From positions 1 through 64,000 of the IMG/VR virus record IMGVR_UViG_3300021091_000027: a DNA stretch of 64,000 nt. One strand, given 5' to 3'. The position numbers were made by a program, and so were the translations under genes. The notes under the pieces are model-generated. The model was not told the DNA's origin and ran no database searches. It saw nothing but the letters and a program-made list of their open reading frames with translations. The stretch comes from a virus. Shown here piece by piece: positions 1 through 37,011 of the stretch (positions are counted from its first letter, which is position 1; every line of letters begins with the position of its first letter).

Positions 1-4
1 CCCT

Positions 5-448
5 ATGGGGCCGCCACCTATGGATCCTGCAATGATGGGCGGAGCACCACCTATGGATCCTGCAATGATGGGTGGAGCGCCACCTATGGATCCTGCAATG
101 ATGGGTGGAGCACCACCTATGGATCCTGCAATGATGGGCGGAGCGCCTGCTGCTCCAGCTGCTCCAATCGAACAAGAAATTGCATCTATCAAAGATATGT
201 TGCAACAGTTGATGGATGCACAAATAGCTATGATGCAGATTTTAGGCGGAGGAGGATTACCCCCAGCAGGATCTCCTCCTCCTATGGACCCTGCGATGAT
301 AGGCGCACCTTCTGGGATGAACGGCGGAGCAGATCCAGCAATGATGGGACTGCCTTCAGCTCCTCCTCCGGGAATGATTGCACAAGCTTCTGTAGATGAT
401 GAAGATTTTAATAATTACATAAAAACTATTACAGAGTTACTTAGATGA
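5..448 (+). CDS. Pro/Met/Gly-rich low-complexity protein, probably 5'-truncated by the window edge
   Basis: ORF with PPMDPAMMGGA repeats. The frame is open back to the window start, and the stop overlaps the next start (ATGA). Confidence 0.7.
   Translation: MGPPPMDPAMMGGAPPMDPAMMGGAPPMDPAMMGGAPPMDPAMMGGAPAAPAAPIEQEIASIKDMLQQLMDAQIAMMQILGGGGLPPAGSPPPMDPAMIGAPSGMNGGADPAMMGLPSAPPPGMIAQASVDDEDFNNYIKTITELLR
14..145 (+). repeat. 4 x 33-bp coding tandem repeat (PPMDPAMMGGA)
   Basis: The unit ccacctatggatcctgcaatgatgggYggagcR occurs at 14, 47, 80 and 113 and differs only at synonymous positions. Confidence 0.95.
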
Positions 449-672
449 GAGCTAGACTTCAAAAGTCTAATATTTTAGTACCACCTAGGTATGAGAAGAA
501 TTTATCTTCCATACTAATATACGACGATAAAGATCAGGTTATATTTGCAGTAATCTTAACTCCAGCAGGGACATACAAATTTACTCATGCGGGGTTAGAT
601 AATTTTAAACAAGAAGTGAAGTTAATCACCGGAATGGATATAGACAATCCAAAACTTGAAGAGGTGAATTAA
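445..672 (+). CDS. hypothetical protein
   Basis: 75-aa ORF translationally coupled to the upstream gene. Confidence 0.65.
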   Translation: MRARLQKSNILVPPRYEKNLSSILIYDDKDQVIFAVILTPAGTYKFTHAGLDNFKQEVKLITGMDIDNPKLEEVN

Positions 673-676
673 GTCA

Positions 677-1522
677 ATGATTGACCCTGTTAGACAACTC
701 TTGGTTAAGATGGCCTATACCCCAAATCCTTTTAGGGGCAATTTATATAATTCTGCTTATAAAGCGGAAAGTCCAGAACAATACGGACAGCTGGTCAGCA
801 GAGATATACAGACCTACGGACATTTGGCCCCAGGATCTGATGAATACAATATGACTATGCAAGAAAAGGGATTTACACCTGAATATATGCAGGGAATCTC
901 TTCAGCAGGACAAAGGGTGCTGCGCGCTGCAAATGATCCTGAATTTGTAAGAGGAATGCAGCAAGGTACCGCAAATATATCAGATCTATACAAAGACTTT
1001 CAAGGCTCCTCAGGCATTGCGAAAGCGCTTGGCGGATGGAGTAACGTGGCGGCCTATGGATTACGTAATCCGATAGATTCTGCTCAAGCTCTTTACGGTG
1101 CGGGAAGAGATTGGCTTACAAATTCTGACCAATCTTCAAAGCAATTTGGAGATAAGTTAATGTCAAGCATAGATATGAATTCCCCCTTAGCTCGTGCTGC
1201 TAAATCAAGAGGGGCCACAACATATCTTAATTCTAAAATTCAAGATATTTTTAGCGGGCTGGGAGGATTTGGAAAAGGTGTTGGAGGCGGGCTTAGTTTC
1301 TTACTAGGTCTTTTGTCAAAAATACCTGGATACGACACACTAGCAAACAAGCTGGTTGATTGGAGTGGGGGATTTAAACCTGGAGGTCAAAGAGCTTTGC
1401 CGCATTCGCCTTTTGCAGTCAAGGCTGGATCAGTTAGATTTATACAAGGCAAGCCTTATTCTCACTATGCCGTCACTTCAACTCAGTGCGGTTCTGAGGT
1501 GCTGACATGGAACCGACAGTAA
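677..1522 (+). CDS. hypothetical, putative internal virion protein (leader ending KMA; Gly-rich hydrophobic segment)
   Basis: N-terminus MIDPVRQLLVKMA; contains GLGGFGKGVGGGLSFLLGLL. Confidence 0.6.
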   Translation: MIDPVRQLLVKMAYTPNPFRGNLYNSAYKAESPEQYGQLVSRDIQTYGHLAPGSDEYNMTMQEKGFTPEYMQGISSAGQRVLRAANDPEFVRGMQQGTANISDLYKDFQGSSGIAKALGGWSNVAAYGLRNPIDSAQALYGAGRDWLTNSDQSSKQFGDKLMSSIDMNSPLARAAKSRGATTYLNSKIQDIFSGLGGFGKGVGGGLSFLLGLLSKIPGYDTLANKLVDWSGGFKPGGQRALPHSPFAVKAGSVRFIQGKPYSHYAVTSTQCGSEVLTWNRQ

Positions 1523-3366
1523 CAACCGTGGGACAACTGCTGATAAATTCTGCTCTTCCAGAAGACAGCAGAGACTATGGAAGAATCTGGGACAAGCTCT
1601 CTATGAGGAAATTTCTAACGGAAATGGCCTCTAAATTGACTCCCGATAAGTACAGGGAGATGGTTCAACAACTTACTTTAATTGGCTTGAAGAGTGCAAG
1701 ACAATCGTCTTTATCTAGTTTTAGTCTTGAAAGCCTTAAGCCACCAAAGGTTAAACGCGATATAACAAATGTACTAAGACAGGAAGTACGTCAGATTGTT
1801 AGGTCTGTAAAGGATCCTGCCCAAAGAAATGAAGCTATAGTGGATGTAGCTTTAAAGTATCAAAAAACTTTGGCAGATAAGGTGTATCAGGAGTTACTAC
1901 AAAACGATAATCCATTTGCTATGCATGTATATGCCGGAGCACGTGGAAATAAAGATCAGCTGGCTTCTATGATTGGCAGCGATCTTCTCTATAGTGATAA
2001 TAAAGGTCGCCCCGTTCCGATTCCTGTGCTGAATTCATATTCAGAGGGTATGGATCCCGTGGAGTACTGGGCAGGATCATATGGCGCTAGAGCAGGAGCT
2101 ATTGATACTAAATTGGCTGTAGGCGATGCTGGGTATTTTGCTAAACGTCTTACTGCCTCTGCACATAGGCTTGTTGTTACGGATGAGGACATTGAAGACG
2201 GCCAAGGATTTATAGTAGAAGTAAACGATCCAGACAATATAGGTGGAGTGCTTGCTAGAGATGAGGGGCAGTTTAAGAAAGGTACGTATGTGGATGCTGC
2301 CGTACTAAAGGCCTTGAACGTATCTGGCAAGAAGAACATTATGATCTACTCTCCTATCGCAGCCGTAAGTGGAATTGGCGGACTGCCCAGACTGGCTGCC
2401 GGAATAAGAGAACACGGTAAGCTTGCAGAAATAGGTATGAATGTAGGGATTACTGCTGCTCAGGCAATTGCAGAACCTATAAGCCAGGGCATGTTGAATT
2501 CCAAGCACTCAGGGGGAGTATCAAAAGGCAAAACAAAAAGAACTGTAACTGGCTTTAACTATTTAAATCAACTCATAGAAGTTCCAAAAACTTTTACAGA
2601 TGGAGCTCCGGTAACTAAAGCGGACGGCATTGTTGGGAAAGTAGAATCTGCTCCTCAAGGCGGAAACTATGTTTATGTAAATAATGAAAAATACTATGTT
2701 CCAGTAGAGCAATCAGTATCCGTTAGACAAGGTCAAACGTTAGAAGCTGGAGATGCCTTATCCGACGGTATAATTAATCCAAAGGATATTGCTGAGCTTA
2801 AAGGAATTGGAGAGGCTCGCAGACACTTTGTAAAACAATTTAAATCTGCTTTACAGGAGAATGGACTGCCGGTTCATCGTAGAAATGTCGAAGTAGTTGC
2901 AAGAGGTTTGATTAATCAAGTAGAACTGACTGAGTCCGATGTGGTAGAGGGAGCATATCCAGAAGACATAGTGAGTTATGACTACCTAGCTTCAAGATAT
3001 AAACCAAGACAAGGCTTTCAAACTGGAAGTCCTTCTAAATATCTAAATCATTATCTAGAAAAACCAATTTTGCACTATTCTATTGGAACTCGTATAACTC
3101 CCACTGTAGCCAAAGAGCTAAAAGAAAATGGATTCTCAGATGTGATCGTTCATAAAAATCCTCCTCCATTTAAACCAACCATGACTAGAGCTATGATGTC
3201 ATTGCTCGGAGATAGAGATTGGATGGTTCAACTTGGAGGATTTAATCTTAAAAAGACCTTTTTGGATAATATACAGCGAGGATCTACCTCCCAGATACAC
3301 GGCACATCCTGGATTCCAGCTTTGGCTACTGGAGAAATCTCAAAGGGTCCAAAAGGCACCTACTGA
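1507..3366 (+). CDS. rpoC: DNA-directed RNA polymerase beta' subunit, C-terminal half (split subunit)
   Basis: Collinear matches to bacterial beta': TTVGQLLIN (TTVGR); AGARGN (SGARGS); bridge helix EGMDPVEYWAGSYGARAGAIDTKLAVGDAGYFAKRL; trigger loop GITAAQAIAEPISQGMLNSKHSGG; SBHM-like GQTLEAGDALSDG; VHRRNVEVVARGL. There is no NADFDGD motif. Confidence 0.92.
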   Translation: MEPTVTTVGQLLINSALPEDSRDYGRIWDKLSMRKFLTEMASKLTPDKYREMVQQLTLIGLKSARQSSLSSFSLESLKPPKVKRDITNVLRQEVRQIVRSVKDPAQRNEAIVDVALKYQKTLADKVYQELLQNDNPFAMHVYAGARGNKDQLASMIGSDLLYSDNKGRPVPIPVLNSYSEGMDPVEYWAGSYGARAGAIDTKLAVGDAGYFAKRLTASAHRLVVTDEDIEDGQGFIVEVNDPDNIGGVLARDEGQFKKGTYVDAAVLKALNVSGKKNIMIYSPIAAVSGIGGLPRLAAGIREHGKLAEIGMNVGITAAQAIAEPISQGMLNSKHSGGVSKGKTKRTVTGFNYLNQLIEVPKTFTDGAPVTKADGIVGKVESAPQGGNYVYVNNEKYYVPVEQSVSVRQGQTLEAGDALSDGIINPKDIAELKGIGEARRHFVKQFKSALQENGLPVHRRNVEVVARGLINQVELTESDVVEGAYPEDIVSYDYLASRYKPRQGFQTGSPSKYLNHYLEKPILHYSIGTRITPTVAKELKENGFSDVIVHKNPPPFKPTMTRAMMSLLGDRDWMVQLGGFNLKKTFLDNIQRGSTSQIHGTSWIPALATGEISKGPKGTY

Positions 3367-4698: not shown

Positions 4699-6834
4699 AT
4701 GGCCAGAAAGAACATCATTAAGCTTGCAGATGACGTAACGTTTGAGCAAAACTTCTTTCAGTTGGCTTTTGCTTATATTCGTGACAAGATTCCTAATCTG
4801 CTTGACTACATGCTTGGTTTTGAGGTAGTTAACAAGAACGAGGATGGCACTCAAGCCGTTGGTCTTTTTAAGTTTGACATAAGCGGTAGAGAGCTTTTTG
4901 TACCGATCTTCTACAAGAACGGCGAGCTCAAAGGTGCTGAGTTGCTATATAATCAGAATCAGGACCAGTTTGTTCCAAATAAGGAAAACTGGGTCGATAC
5001 TATTCTAAATGCAAGACCGGAAGAGCTGGGGGTTCCATCCGAGTTAAACAAAGGTGAGATCATGGCAGGCATGCAGTCTGGCATGGATTTATCTAAGATA
5101 TACAACCCTACCCAAAATACTAAGTTTAGCATGGATAGAATGCAGAATTTGTCCAGTCAGTTTAACATTGACTTTAAAAAATTTCTCAAAACCGCTAATT
5201 GTAAGTTTGCTGAAATATATACCAAGACCTTGATGCACAATCCAGAACTTCATAAGGTGGCCATAGAAGCCTACGGCTCTGAACTTTATGAATGTCTAAA
5301 GGGATGTAAACAGTCTGAAACCATTGTATTAGACAACAACAAAGTTCCAGAAGTTGAAGTTATAGATGTACACGGCCCTCAGGATGTTTTGAACAGCATA
5401 ACTGATTCAGAAAAACAAGAACTCATTGAAGAAGGCGTAGTTCTACGAGACAATCGTAAAAACTTGGGAAGAATTTCTTACAAAATTGAAGGGCCCATGG
5501 CTCTGAATGCTTGTAATTGTGCAGGATTGTATAGCGTTTTAATGCCTGGTGGAAGTGTCGACAAGATGGCCGTAATTCCTTCTGCAGTATCTGGTTGCTC
5601 CTACACCTCTTCAAACTGTGTGGAAAGTGTCATTATTGCAGTAGGTGAGGGCAAGTCCGACAGGGTTGAATCATCGAAGGTTTTCTCTTTGGGTGCCTCC
5701 ATGCCAGGATCAGATTTCAAGGCATTTGTAGATAAGCTAAAGTCTGTTGATTCAGCAAAGACGGAAGCTCCAAGCAAAAACTACGATCTAAACAAAAAAG
5801 GAAATTTCAATGTTTTCGTAGAAGCTGACGGCAGCCAGGCTGCTGGACCATGCACTTTGGAGAATGCTGTGGTTAGCGGAGATGTGACTACGTATTCAGT
5901 GTTTGGGTTACCGTGCTGTGATAAAATTGTTGTGTCTCCTTCGTACAGACGCATGAAGATGTTTGACAGAACTTTGTACGTGCCCAAGACGGCAAAAGTA
6001 CATACTTTTTCTGATAACAGGTATCGCAGCAAAATTGAACTTGGCGGAGCTAGGGATATTGATGCCAGAATTAAAGGTTTGAATGATCAGGTCAAGGTAT
6101 CCAAGGATAGAATCGGATTCCGAGTTTTAATAAATGGAAAAACAGTATTCAAGGAAGCCTCGAAGAGAGATGCGTATGTTGGCTTAGTGGCTGGATTTGG
6201 AATGAGCATTTTAGAAGCCAAATCAGCACTTAAGTCTGCAGCTGCTCTTGAAGATGTAGTGCTGTATTTCGAGAAAAAGGCGCAACCATTCTTTGATCCA
6301 GGCATGGTTGCGACTCCAAATGTACCTTCGGCACCCATGGGCATAAATCCCACGTTGGGTGTTGCAGAGCAGTACCCACAAGCCGACACCGTCTCTGCTA
6401 CTTCTGGTCAGCCTGGAGATGTACTTAATCAAAGAATCATGGATAGCATTACTGGAATGGGTCAAGGCCAACAAGGTCTTAACCAACAGTCTGTAGACAG
6501 AATAATGCAGGCAGCACAATCCGGGGAGCAAAACGTATTTGACGTTGCTAATATCTCCGAACTTATAAATCGTGCTGACATAGACACTCCGCTCGATCAA
6601 TACATGGCAGATCTGCAAACAGCCCTTGATCGTTTAGGAAGAATATATTTCCTTATGCTATTCCATGGAGATAAGTTCTCTGAGCGCTTTAGCCAGGAAG
6701 ATTTGCCAAGCATGGAAGAGTCTGTTAGAAATACTTTCCTTAATCTTGGGGAACTAATCCTTAAGCTTAAGGAACGCAAGATCGAAGCAGACTCAGGTTC
6801 TGCAGTTGAAACCGATCTTAATCAGTTAGTGTAA
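4699..6834 (+). CDS. large hypothetical head-region protein (KxA-rich)
   Basis: 711-aa ORF with IKLAD, LKTAN, FKEAS, EKKAQ and a Q/G/P-rich linker before a helical C-terminus. Confidence 0.7.
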   Translation: MARKNIIKLADDVTFEQNFFQLAFAYIRDKIPNLLDYMLGFEVVNKNEDGTQAVGLFKFDISGRELFVPIFYKNGELKGAELLYNQNQDQFVPNKENWVDTILNARPEELGVPSELNKGEIMAGMQSGMDLSKIYNPTQNTKFSMDRMQNLSSQFNIDFKKFLKTANCKFAEIYTKTLMHNPELHKVAIEAYGSELYECLKGCKQSETIVLDNNKVPEVEVIDVHGPQDVLNSITDSEKQELIEEGVVLRDNRKNLGRISYKIEGPMALNACNCAGLYSVLMPGGSVDKMAVIPSAVSGCSYTSSNCVESVIIAVGEGKSDRVESSKVFSLGASMPGSDFKAFVDKLKSVDSAKTEAPSKNYDLNKKGNFNVFVEADGSQAAGPCTLENAVVSGDVTTYSVFGLPCCDKIVVSPSYRRMKMFDRTLYVPKTAKVHTFSDNRYRSKIELGGARDIDARIKGLNDQVKVSKDRIGFRVLINGKTVFKEASKRDAYVGLVAGFGMSILEAKSALKSAAALEDVVLYFEKKAQPFFDPGMVATPNVPSAPMGINPTLGVAEQYPQADTVSATSGQPGDVLNQRIMDSITGMGQGQQGLNQQSVDRIMQAAQSGEQNVFDVANISELINRADIDTPLDQYMADLQTALDRLGRIYFLMLFHGDKFSERFSQEDLPSMEESVRNTFLNLGELILKLKERKIEADSGSAVETDLNQLV

Positions 6835-9966: not shown

Positions 9967-11322
9967 ATGTTTATCAAAGCATTTAGTCCTGATCACTTTA
10001 ATCTAGGTAGTGACGCCCCGTTTGAGATTCTTAGATTTTCCTCAAAGGGTCTTGACTCTGGTCAGGAGAAGCGCGCTAATATGTTTTCCAAGTTGATTGA
10101 AGGATATGTTCCCTCAAAAGACAAGACGGCAGTTCACACGATAGCCATGACTTCTTCAGAGAAATTTGGATTTAATAGAAATGGCGACGGCTGGAAACGT
10201 GCTAATCTAATAAGAGACCATCCCACTTTTATTTCTCATGCAAAGGTGTTTCGCCACCACAAGAATACTCCATTAGATTCCTCTTTTGGAGTTATTAAAG
10301 CTGCTACATTCAACGACGACATGGACAGAGTTGAATTGTTAATGGAGCTGGACAACTCTAAGTGCGCCGAAGAACTGTCTTTGCTTGAGAGAAATGGTAG
10401 CTATCCTGTTTCCATGGCTTGCAAGATTTCACATGACGTATGCTCCATATGCTCAAATAAAGCAAAAACTCCAAAAGAGTATTGTTGGCATGTGAAAGAA
10501 GCGCTTGGCAAGATTATGGATGATGGTAAGATTGTTGGAGTCGACAACCCTCAATCCATATTTTTTGACATATCTAGAGTTATTCGCCCAGCCGATAGAG
10601 TCGCTTATACTTTAAAGAAAGCCTCTACCGGTATCAGCGGAGGAGCCGCTCTTGCAGAAGAGCTAGGATATTCTTTAAATACTTTAGACACAATAGAATC
10701 TACTTTGACCTGCAACTATAAGTCTGCAGAGAAAAAAAGAAAAATATTAGAAAAAATATCAAAAATGGAAAAAAGAATTGATGGCATTGCTCAACCAGCT
10801 GTCATTGATTCTCAAGAGGAGGTAGAGGAGGCTGTAAAAAAGCTTTCTTCTTTTATTCCGATCTATATGGACTCGGTGATGAGAGGGCTTAGCGATAATG
10901 GTATTGTCCTACGTCCATCTGAGTTTTATACCCTTATGACTGGAAATTCTTTGGGACCTACCCAAGCAATAAATTTTAATAAATCTGCAGTTGCCGAAGG
11001 AATAAGCCAATTTTCTTCAGAGGATCTGATTTTTAGTTCATTATATGAGCCGGCAAGCATGAAGATATCTGGCAAGATTGCAAATTTATGTGATGCTATC
11101 AGGCCCTATCGTAGTGTAACTATTCCATTAATGGGTAGAATTATTGGTACACAAATTAGAAAATCAAATCCAATTAAGCTATCTTCTGATTTAGATTCAT
11201 GTTGGTCTAAAGAATATGTTCGATATCAGCTTGAAACATATAAGTCCATCAAGGCCGCATCTTCCGCAGGCGACATTGATGATTTAGTCTTTTGCGGAAT
11301 TTGCCAAAATACTGTAGAATAA
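9967..11322 (+). CDS. prohead (capsid maturation) serine protease, clan SH/HK97-like, with Zn-finger insert
   Basis: NRNGD, FRHH (candidate catalytic His), VSMAC (candidate catalytic Ser), then CSICSN...YCWH. It lies directly upstream of the scaffold, cement and capsid genes. Confidence 0.75.
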   Translation: MFIKAFSPDHFNLGSDAPFEILRFSSKGLDSGQEKRANMFSKLIEGYVPSKDKTAVHTIAMTSSEKFGFNRNGDGWKRANLIRDHPTFISHAKVFRHHKNTPLDSSFGVIKAATFNDDMDRVELLMELDNSKCAEELSLLERNGSYPVSMACKISHDVCSICSNKAKTPKEYCWHVKEALGKIMDDGKIVGVDNPQSIFFDISRVIRPADRVAYTLKKASTGISGGAALAEELGYSLNTLDTIESTLTCNYKSAEKKRKILEKISKMEKRIDGIAQPAVIDSQEEVEEAVKKLSSFIPIYMDSVMRGLSDNGIVLRPSEFYTLMTGNSLGPTQAINFNKSAVAEGISQFSSEDLIFSSLYEPASMKISGKIANLCDAIRPYRSVTIPLMGRIIGTQIRKSNPIKLSSDLDSCWSKEYVRYQLETYKSIKAASSAGDIDDLVFCGICQNTVE

Positions 11323-35988: not shown

Positions 35989-37011
35989 ATGGACTTATTT
36001 CCAACCATACCTAAACCTTCAAAGACTCTAAGTCTGTTTAATGGATTTGAGCAACCCGCTTTCTACGATTCAATGGAGGCTATTAAGAAGCCTGCAGAGC
36101 CTCCTTTAGCTCCAGAGCTTCCAGAAGAGCCCCTAAAGGCTCCGGAGCCCCCAGAGCCCCTAGAGCCCATATTCCCCAAACTTGCCCCAACAGGCACTGA
36201 CGGACTTCCTAAATCCCCGCAGATTGCAACAACTACTTTCCCCGCTGCCAGCGCCTCTCCGATTCCTCAAGCTCCGGTAAAAAAACAAACCTTAGAGGAA
36301 ATGCACTCTGATTGGGCTAAAAATAAAAAAACTGAAAATATGCAAAAGATTCTTGATGAACTTTCATCAGATATTGATAAGGCAATTTACGCTTATTCTG
36401 GTCTCAATGCCGGTCCTGCTGTAAAGAGTAAGGCCAAAGTATTGGCAGCAAAAGCTATAAAAACTTATGACCCTAAATCTGGAGCATCTTTAAAAAGTTG
36501 GGTATACACCCAGTTACAGCCTTTAAGCAGATACTCTAGAGATCTTAATCCTTCTCCTATGCCAGAGCGTGCCTATCAGCAGCTAAGTTCCATTAAGAAG
36601 CATGAGGCTGAGTTCTACGAAAATAAAGGCCGTCCGCCTTCAGATGCAGAATTAGCAGATTTAACTGGAATGTCAGTAAAGCAGATTCAAAAAGTAAAGG
36701 AAATGGAAAAGAAGACTTACAGCGAAGGACACACTGCCTACTCCGGAAGCACCCCTGCCACCTCTCAAGAAATTACTGCAACCGAAAATACTAATTTTAA
36801 AAAGAACGTACTTGACACTTTATACAGTTCGCTAACTCCTCAAGAGCAGTTAATCTTAGAACATAAATTAGGCTATAATGGTAAAAAAATACTTTCTAAT
36901 AATGAAATATCTAAAAAACTTGGAATAAGCCCAGGAAGAGTTAGTCAACTTACTTCAGAGCTATCTAAAAAACTGGAGGAGTACGTAGAGTTAAATAAAG
37001 GCAGCATGTGA
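35989..37011 (+). CDS. sigma-70 family RNA polymerase sigma factor (FliA/SigF-like regions 2-4) with Pro-rich N-extension
   Basis: Region 2 KAIKTYDPKSGASLKSWV; region 3 GRPPSDAELADLTGMS; region 4 LTPQEQLIL..SNNEISKKLGISPGRVSQL. Confidence 0.88.
   Translation: MDLFPTIPKPSKTLSLFNGFEQPAFYDSMEAIKKPAEPPLAPELPEEPLKAPEPPEPLEPIFPKLAPTGTDGLPKSPQIATTTFPAASASPIPQAPVKKQTLEEMHSDWAKNKKTENMQKILDELSSDIDKAIYAYSGLNAGPAVKSKAKVLAAKAIKTYDPKSGASLKSWVYTQLQPLSRYSRDLNPSPMPERAYQQLSSIKKHEAEFYENKGRPPSDAELADLTGMSVKQIQKVKEMEKKTYSEGHTAYSGSTPATSQEITATENTNFKKNVLDTLYSSLTPQEQLILEHKLGYNGKKILSNNEISKKLGISPGRVSQLTSELSKKLEEYVELNKGSM

Follow-up and report, generated by a model that had tools for sequence, protein, structure and literature searches.

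The window analyzed here is the first 64 kb (64,000 nucleotides) of a 111,051-base phage contig from IMG/VR (IMGVR_UViG_3300021091_000027) with a completeness rating of 62%; it starts at base 1 of the contig. Near its left end, on the plus strand, an open reading frame (ORF) at positions 1507 to 3366 encodes a protein of 619 amino acids (P0001), which we assign as the probable C-terminal chain of β' (β'C) in a two-chain phage RNA polymerase (RNAP). The frame is open over its length, and direct reading of the sequence reveals a Shine-Dalgarno-like GAGG (1496 to 1499, plus strand) that precedes the ATG at 1507 by 7 nt. In the alignment, a start of the form MEP or MDP is kept in all eight of the eight clade members.

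The protein is the C-terminal half of a bacterial-type β' subunit, with the bridge helix, trigger loop, jaw, and C-terminal part of the clamp, and the first-pass annotation of this DNA had recognized it as such. It matches RNA_pol_Rpb1_5 in Pfam with an E value of 2.7e-25, next to a weak match to Rpb1_4, and its best relative among solved structures is the stretch from residue 664 to 1174 of Mycobacterium smegmatis β' (E value, 1.5e-36). The β' chains of Streptomyces, M. tuberculosis, Thermus, and Clostridioides are next best with similar scores, and no bacterial lineage stands out. An AlphaFold2 model, for which the input alignment held 59 sequences, is confident over the full length of the protein (mean predicted local distance difference test score, or pLDDT, 87.6), and its top Foldseek matches are all bacterial β' chains, including those of Thermus and Mycobacterium (~630 to 670 columns; TMq, ~0.7). 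The ratio of nonsynonymous to synonymous substitution rates (dN/dS) of the gene is 0.11 in comparison with a 96%-identical relative (locus L004), indicating that it is maintained under purifying selection. The only cultured relatives found were Salmonella phage Arash and the Vibrio phages D69, D181, and D148, at 25 to 28% identity.

Individual residues were assigned by alignment with Escherichia coli RpoC (locus L018). The TTVG motif at residues 6 to 9 (positions 1522 to 1533, plus strand) corresponds to E. coli β' residues 571 to 574, where the E. coli counterpart extends as TTVGR (571 to 575); the chain does begin at this motif, as had been reported, and the split point lies just upstream of it. 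The bridge helix (residues 184 to 219; positions 2056 to 2163, plus strand) is a long helix in the model, H184-219, and aligns to the β' bridge-helix region. The trigger loop (positions 2443 to 2577, plus strand), placed from the alignments and the model, is complete, with a helix of residues 313 to 335 that includes QGMLNSKH, a flexible tip (336 to 348), and a helix of residues 349 to 357. Compared with QLTMRTFH in E. coli, QGMLNSKH keeps His936 and replaces M932 with L, R933 with N, and F935 with K, in agreement with the first description of an altered loop that retains its histidine. Family members share the consensus Q-x-x-L-S-(S/A)-K-H: the K-H pair is kept across the family with an invariant lysine, a small polar residue takes the place of Arg933 family-wide, and the variant is also found in Arash and D69. 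Bridge-helix and trigger-loop residues are invariant across the 59 aligned sequences. We conjecture that the conserved lysine takes over the contact of Arg933 with the incoming nucleoside triphosphate. In the alignment with E. coli RpoC, the protein retains the second trigger helix, the jaw, and the C-terminal region of the clamp and lacks the SI3 insert. The bridge helix of the initial reading was recovered from both alignment and model, its C-terminal clamp was recovered from the alignment, and its SBHM insert was recovered in part: the segment exists, at approximately residues 372 to 422 (positions 2620 to 2772, plus strand; model strands, 374 to 398), but it is the conserved β-rich segment of the β' jaw, aligning to the segment that follows trigger helix 2 in E. 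coli and M. smegmatis, with no extra insert.

What remains of the second β' zinc site (positions 2191 to 2397, plus strand) was traced by alignment. I229 stands at the position of E. coli C814, and A286, P294, and A297 stand at those of C888, C895, and C898. VVTDEDIE occupies the place of E. coli VVTEDDCG, and SPIAAVSGIGGLPRLAAG occupies that of the C888/C895/C898 segment, so that the loss of the zinc-site cysteines noted earlier is confirmed residue by residue. The role of these cysteines in E. coli is reportedly the subject of work by Markov and colleagues that appeared in Genes Dev in 1999. Structure modelling around the site gave pLDDT values of 93 to 95. All four second-site cysteines are missing in 8/8 clade members and present in Arash gp216 and D69_0264. 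The window protein has no cysteine at all, compared with a mean cysteine content of 1.0% in the proteins of the window, and the β'C chains of all eight clade members are likewise cysteine free.

The catalytic NADFDGD motif of β' is absent from the protein, as first stated, and from the whole 111-kb contig. Neither Pfam searches for Rpb1_2 and Rpb2_6 nor tblastn searches for sequence like Arash gp206 and D69_0261 found a partner on the 111-kb contig. As the contig covers 62% of the genome and its first base lies 1.5 kb upstream of the gene, this result is not evidence that a partner is absent from the genome. We therefore turn to eight IMG/VR relatives whose β'C is 78 to 96% identical to that of the window phage. 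Two of these, G002 (174.6 kb) and G003 (183.5 kb, with terminal repeats), are rated 100% complete, and their β'C chains are 78 to 80% identical to the window protein; a third, G005, is a fragment. Each of the three encodes a single frame of 1,638 to 2,034 amino acids with Rpb2_3, Rpb2_6, Rpb1_1, and Rpb1_2, that is, a whole β fused to the front of β' (β::β'N). Rpb2_6 has a single match in each of the three, as does Rpb1_5 in the two complete genomes. The catalytic motif of the fusion is canonical (GFNADFDGDQM). According to BLAST and MAFFT comparisons with E. coli, β residues 48 to 1338 join directly to β' from approximately residue 19, and the chain ends at approximately E. coli β' residue 548 (VKVRI), leaving a gap of ~19 residues, by E. 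coli numbering, to the start of β'C. The description of the window protein as a stand-alone piece does not survive this comparison, as complete relatives encode one β::β'N fusion with NADFDGD.

The position of the fusion gene in these relatives indicates where that of the window phage should be sought. Within the window subclade, the gene lies 36 to 44 kb upstream of β'C, and the order in G002 and G003 is portal gene, 19 to 25 kb, fusion gene, 36 to 41 kb, β'C. A portal-protein homologue is located outside the window at contig positions 103882 to 105291 (plus strand; 25% identity to the Arash portal protein gp204; E value, 2e-50). A portal gene at 103.9 to 105.3 kb, combined with the order in the complete relatives, places the fusion beyond the contig end at 111 kb, and the partner gene of the window phage would thus be in the ~65 kb missing between the end and the start of the contig. 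In a sister subclade (G006 to G009; contigs of 157 to 194 kb), Rpb2_6 and Rpb1_2 share one frame of 1,480 to 1,504 amino acids located 1.7 to 2 kb upstream of β'C. No Pfam match to α or ω was obtained in five genomes.

The fusion partners extend the picture of zinc loss to the other chain. In the five fusion proteins aligned (three from relatives of the window phage, plus Arash gp206 and D69_0261), the N-terminal zinc-binding domain (E. coli C70, C72, C85, and C88) is wholly deleted in every case. Four intein-free fusion partners of ~1,525 to 1,640 amino acids contain 1 to 3 cysteines each, and the intein-bearing frame of G003 contains 10 in 2,034 amino acids. With the N-terminal zinc domain deleted and all second-site ligands replaced, the enzyme of this clade has no canonical zinc site, and its β'C chain has no cysteine.

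A HMMER scan of 1.84 billion representatives of protein clusters at 50% identity returned 4,843 matches, 1,113 of them at an E value of 1e-30 or below. The best 150 of the 4,843 all have E values below 1e-137 and 40 to 58% identity, and nearly all of these 150 start alike, with residues 2 to 6 aligned to query residues 5 to 6. About three quarters of the same 150 have a longer β'C than the window protein. Since layout and start are shared by more than 1,000 clusters, by Arash, and by D69, they were not acquired privately by the window phage, and the arrangement of β::β'N plus β'C appears, from these comparisons, to be a hallmark of a large, old phage family. A FastTree phylogeny places the family in one clade apart from two gammaproteobacterial β' sequences and one Rhizobium-phage β' (Shimodaira-Hasegawa-like [SH-like] support, 99). 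The first-pass view of an independently captured polymerase is contradicted both by this tree and by the layout, start point, and trigger-loop variant held in common by more than 1,000 clusters, Arash, and D69.

About a dozen metagenomic lineages keep the four second-site cysteines, as do Arash, D69, and Rhizobium phage TM30. In the same FastTree phylogeny of 160 sequences, which included the top 150 hits and was rooted on two gammaproteobacterial β' sequences (the only cellular ones), the lineages with four cysteines form a basal grade. All cysteine-less sequences, that of the window phage included, belong to a single 140-row clade (SH-like support, 95), which splits into the window type (23 rows) and a GVY type (114 rows; support, 100). 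The replacement motif is SPI(A/S)A...GG(L/V)PR.AAG in the window subclade (SPIAA...GGLPRLAAG in the window protein) and GGSP.GGVYARDVG in the largest, sister subclade. The most parsimonious history would be that the zinc site was lost once and that two divergent motifs then took its place; given limited sampling and the method, the tree supports a single loss without proving it. On this quick tree, the zinc- and cysteine-free state of β'C appears to be a feature of a large crown clade and not a peculiarity of the window gene.

Insertions and extensions occur in several members of the family. Inteins with LAGLIDADG domains interrupt RNAP genes of the relatives; in G003, one lies in the β part of the fusion (L015:4780-10884, minus strand), which is 2,034 instead of 1,640 amino acids long. 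Inteins or LAGLIDADG inserts are also found in some β'C homologues (P0030, P0014, and others) at query residues 200 to 211, in the bridge helix, or at approximately residue 330, in the trigger loop. Other β'C homologues (P0005 to P0152) carry low-complexity C-terminal extensions of 400 to 1,250 amino acids, rich in S, T, N, Q, P, and A, that end in hydrophobic or amphipathic segments and have no Pfam domains except DUF5661 in two. The window protein has no such extension, and no separate homologue of one is encoded on its contig. The idea that the extensions are fused copies of ORFs downstream of β'C in the window was rejected, as BLAST found no similarity to those ORFs or to the genome.

The closest described systems are the RNAPs of Arash (gp206, 1,525 amino acids; gp216, 606 amino acids; OQ632216; PMC10585845) and of the Vibrio phages D69, D181, and D148. 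Arash and D69 both have a β::β'N fusion and a separate β'C with the same start (0261 and 0264 in D69, in the same layout as in Arash and the relatives of the window phage), a deleted N-terminal zinc domain, a trigger loop of the form L-x-(S/T)-K-H, and a β'C located upstream of the same head genes (homologues of gp218 and gp222). Arash gp206 carries Rpb2_6 together with Rpb1_1/2. The two phages differ from the window clade in sequence (25 to 28% identity), in keeping all four second-site cysteines, in having an AADYDGD active site instead of the NADFDGD of the relatives of the window phage, and in the placement of their two RNAP genes 0.6 to 4.8 kb apart beside the portal gene, compared with 36 to 44 kb apart in the window subclade. 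Arash gp206 (L003:5094-9671) and D69_0261 (L002:2521-7104) are annotated as "RNA polymerase subunit beta" or "hypothetical protein" but are actually β fused to the catalytic front of β'. The Arash paper labels gp206 simply "beta" and describes no fusion (PMC10585845).

Cyanobacteria and plastids also divide β' into two chains, RpoC1 and RpoC2, and the cut falls in the same linker, which follows the catalytic double-psi barrel. Cyanobacterial RpoC2 residues 6 to 15 align to query residues 26 to 29, and RpoC2 residue 1 corresponds to query residue ~14 to 21 (8syi_Z, 8gzg_Z, and 8h3v_B). These alignments place the phage break ~13 to 20 residues N-terminal of the cyanobacterial RpoC2 start, in the same post-barrel (post-DPBB) linker. 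The first-pass statement that the split point differs is therefore literally true, by ~13 to 20 residues, but the difference is minor because the linker is the same. In the window phage, TTVG is on the C-terminal piece, whereas RpoC2 starts after TT(P/V)GR; the phage-type N-terminal piece is fused to β, whereas RpoC1 is separate; and the window protein lacks the large trigger-loop insertion, at 619 compared with ~1,300 amino acids. The phage side also lacks zinc ligands, α, and ω. A start after the motif, a large insertion, and a separate RpoC1, by which RpoC2 would be recognized, are thus not found with the window protein.

The RNAPs of phiKZ/AR9-type jumbo phages are similar in being phage-encoded multisubunit enzymes without α or ω whose β' is split after the barrel (PMC7598289 and PMC7824862), and, according to the review by Sokolova et al. 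(PMC7598289), both the virion RNAP (vRNAP) and the nonvirion RNAP (nvRNAP) of the phiKZ type are split at the cyanobacterial site. One of their RNAP sets is packaged in virions (PMC7598289 and PMC7824862). They differ in having two paralogous sets, a β in two to three chains, no β-β' fusion, and far more divergent sequences; AR9 and PBS1 matches to the window protein are weak and partial (E value, ~1e-7). The complete relatives G002 and G003, by contrast, each encode a single set, with a whole β fused to β'N. Ralstonia phage RP13 has a phiKZ-like split.

The mReC phages (Weinheimer and Aylward 2020, PMC7481178) are, like the window phage, large metagenomic tailed phages with an RNAP that can be aligned with cellular β and β'. 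Their supplementary tables list a separate, adjacent β (~1,000 to 1,377 amino acids) and an unsplit β' (~900 to 1,010 amino acids), a distinction that we draw from the listed descriptions and not from sequences. Sample identifiers of the relatives of the window phage were not found in those tables (PMC7481178), and with identifiers missing and mReC genes separate and β' unsplit, membership of the window phage in this group was rejected. Cobetia phage Carin-5 and Rhizobium phage TM30 are also large tailed phages with an RNAP alignable with cellular β and β' but have an unsplit β' of 1,083 and 1,127 amino acids, respectively. Full-length β-β' fusions, in which the C terminus of β is joined to the N terminus of β', occur naturally in the cellular genomes of Helicobacter and Wolbachia; unlike the phage enzyme, these are not split farther downstream and retain their zinc sites. 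One record of the phage collection, CAKLQF020000005.1 (L033), is named "Acinetobacter phage MD-2021a" and contains bacterial chromosomal DNA (nusG, rplKAJL, rpoB, rpoC, and htpG). As the record is bacterial and not from a phage, its rpoC match has to be left out of any tally of phage RNAPs.

Among the neighbours of β'C in the window are two genes of a conserved head module, upstream of which β'C lies here as in Arash and D69. The ORF at 4699 to 6834 (plus strand; 711 amino acids) is a homologue of Arash gp218 and D69_0266 (tblastn E values, 1e-13 and 3e-10), and gp218 has been detected in Arash virions (PMC10585845). A prohead-protease-like gene follows at 9967 to 11322 (plus strand), with a match to the head maturation protease in PHROG (E value, 5.6e-6) and tblastn matches to gp222 (E value, 6e-35) and D69_0270 (E value, 1e-34). 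Upstream, P0002 (677 to 1522, plus strand; 281 amino acids) is a glycine-rich protein of no known family with a hydrophobic GGLSFLLGLLSKIPG segment, and it is conserved in L004. Its stop overlaps the start of β'C by 16 nt, which suggests translational coupling. P0002 was rejected as a candidate for the β'N piece because it has no Pfam or PHROG match and no similarity to the Arash and D69 loci or to family representatives. In L004, a giant ORF of at least 2,770 amino acids with RCC1 repeats (L004:3-8315, plus strand) ends just upstream of the block that matches window positions 1 to 1522, and the window contig starts right after the point that matches the end of this ORF. A weak, subthreshold Sigma70_r2 match (E value, 0.009) was noted at window positions 36445 to 36510, in the ORF at 35989 to 37011 (plus strand). 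Sigma-factor genes are clear in Arash and D69, but the window clade showed no convincing candidate.

Taken together, we propose that the 1507 to 3366 gene encodes the β'C chain of the phage's own two-chain multisubunit RNAP, that its β::β'N partner is on the missing DNA, and that the enzyme may be loaded into the virion for early transcription; we give this reading a probability of about 0.8. One chain would comprise the whole of β fused head to tail to the front of β', including the clamp's N-terminal portion and the NADFDGD double-psi barrel. The other would be the separate β'C, with the break in a variable loop just before TTVG. The core of the enzyme would consist of these two polypeptides, with no encoded homologue of α or ω. 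It is predicted to be active, since the catalytic motif of the relatives is canonical and the trigger-loop histidine and conserved lysine are kept, and, as has been proposed for Arash, it may be packaged in the head and then injected to carry out early transcription. Packaging in the window clade is plausible by analogy: the head-module synteny is shared with Arash, whose virion preparations hold both chains. In mass spectrometry of such a preparation, gp206 gave the most spectra of all (3,516) and gp216 gave 1,210, and sigma factor gp10 and helicase gp217 were also present (PMC10585845). In both Arash and D69, the fusion gene comes right after the portal gene and one small ORF.

Several points weigh against this reading. 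The partner is not on this contig, and the two-chain enzyme is inferred from relatives that are 78 to 96% identical in β'C. R933 of the trigger loop is gone, and compensation by the conserved lysine is conjecture. AlphaFold ignores metals, so the confident model fits a defined fold but does not prove folding without zinc. The Arash preparation yielded 116 proteins, among them ribonucleotide reductases and primase (PMC10585845); with cytoplasmic enzymes present, carry-over is possible, and the packaging evidence is suggestive but not decisive. In the window subclade, the fusion gene is 36 to 44 kb from β'C and ~19 to 25 kb from the portal gene, which weakens the head-module argument for that chain. 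For the clade itself, activity, metal content, and virion presence are predictions from sequence.

In a rival reading, the same two-chain RNAP is made only after infection, stays in the cytoplasm unpackaged, and transcribes middle or late genes, while early genes are left to the host RNAP, perhaps redirected by sigma-like phage factors. With many nonstructural enzymes in the Arash preparation, its RNAP signal could be carry-over; the distance of the fusion gene from the head genes in the window subclade would fit; and a parallel would exist in Carin-5 and TM30, whose unsplit β and β' genes have a sigma factor next to them or are located among replication genes. We nevertheless consider this unlikely, given the single RNAP set in two complete relatives, the place of β'C in the head module that is conserved from Arash and D69 to the window phage, the fusion gene that follows the portal gene in Arash and D69, and gp206 spectra that outnumber those of every other Arash protein.

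Two further explanations concern the gene itself. A cellular rpoC fragment could have been captured independently, with its own split point, by the window phage or a recent ancestor, and the protein is indeed much closer to cellular β' (E value, 1e-36) than phiKZ-type subunits are. Yet no lineage stands out among the solved bacterial β' chains; start, trigger-loop variant, and fused partner are common to the best 150 representatives (40 to 58% identity) and to Arash and D69 (25 to 28%); and the quick tree sets the family apart from cellular and Rhizobium-phage β' with SH-like support of 99, which together make capture very improbable. Hardly credible is the view of the gene as a remnant, decaying or catalytically dead, such as a decoy or a structural head protein, that is no longer part of a polymerase. 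The loss of the zinc ligands and of R933 and the lack of a partner on the contig would fit such a remnant, but a dN/dS of 0.11, bridge-helix and trigger-loop residues invariant in 59 aligned sequences, a canonical NADFDGD partner in the relatives, and a model confident over the full length all speak against it.

Multisubunit RNAPs encoded by phages are known, and three kinds are described in the searchable papers: the phiKZ/AR9 type, with many chains in two sets; the mReC type, with separate β and β'; and the single-chain crAss/YonO types. Among the searchable literature, no paper was found that describes the fused-and-split two-chain layout or the zinc loss. The two-chain enzyme is thus undescribed in searchable papers even though cultured phages carry it and it spans more than 1,000 clusters (50% identity). 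It aligns with cellular RNAP residue by residue, yet it lacks α, ω, and the N-terminal zinc domain. The window phage is an incomplete further member of its clade and of modest value alone; the clade enzyme as a whole would amount to a minimal form of the bacterial core that occurs in nature and has no metal sites, and it might be used to probe what the zinc sites, trigger-loop R933, and the assembly subunits are needed for. Speculatively, a zinc- and cysteine-free state may aid survival outside the cell or refolding after ejection. Taking this further, the crown clade may have evolved a nearly cysteine-free multisubunit RNAP without structural zinc as an adaptation to carriage in the virion and passage through the tail, a possibility that we hold tentatively and are inclined to doubt. 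If it is true, an enzyme that is zinc independent and oxidation proof could go through unfolding and refolding with no need to reacquire metal, SPIAA...GGLPRLAAG and GGSP.GGVYARDVG would be two ways of doing without zinc sites, and these sites, long held to be conserved assembly elements of cellular-type RNAPs, would be dispensable.

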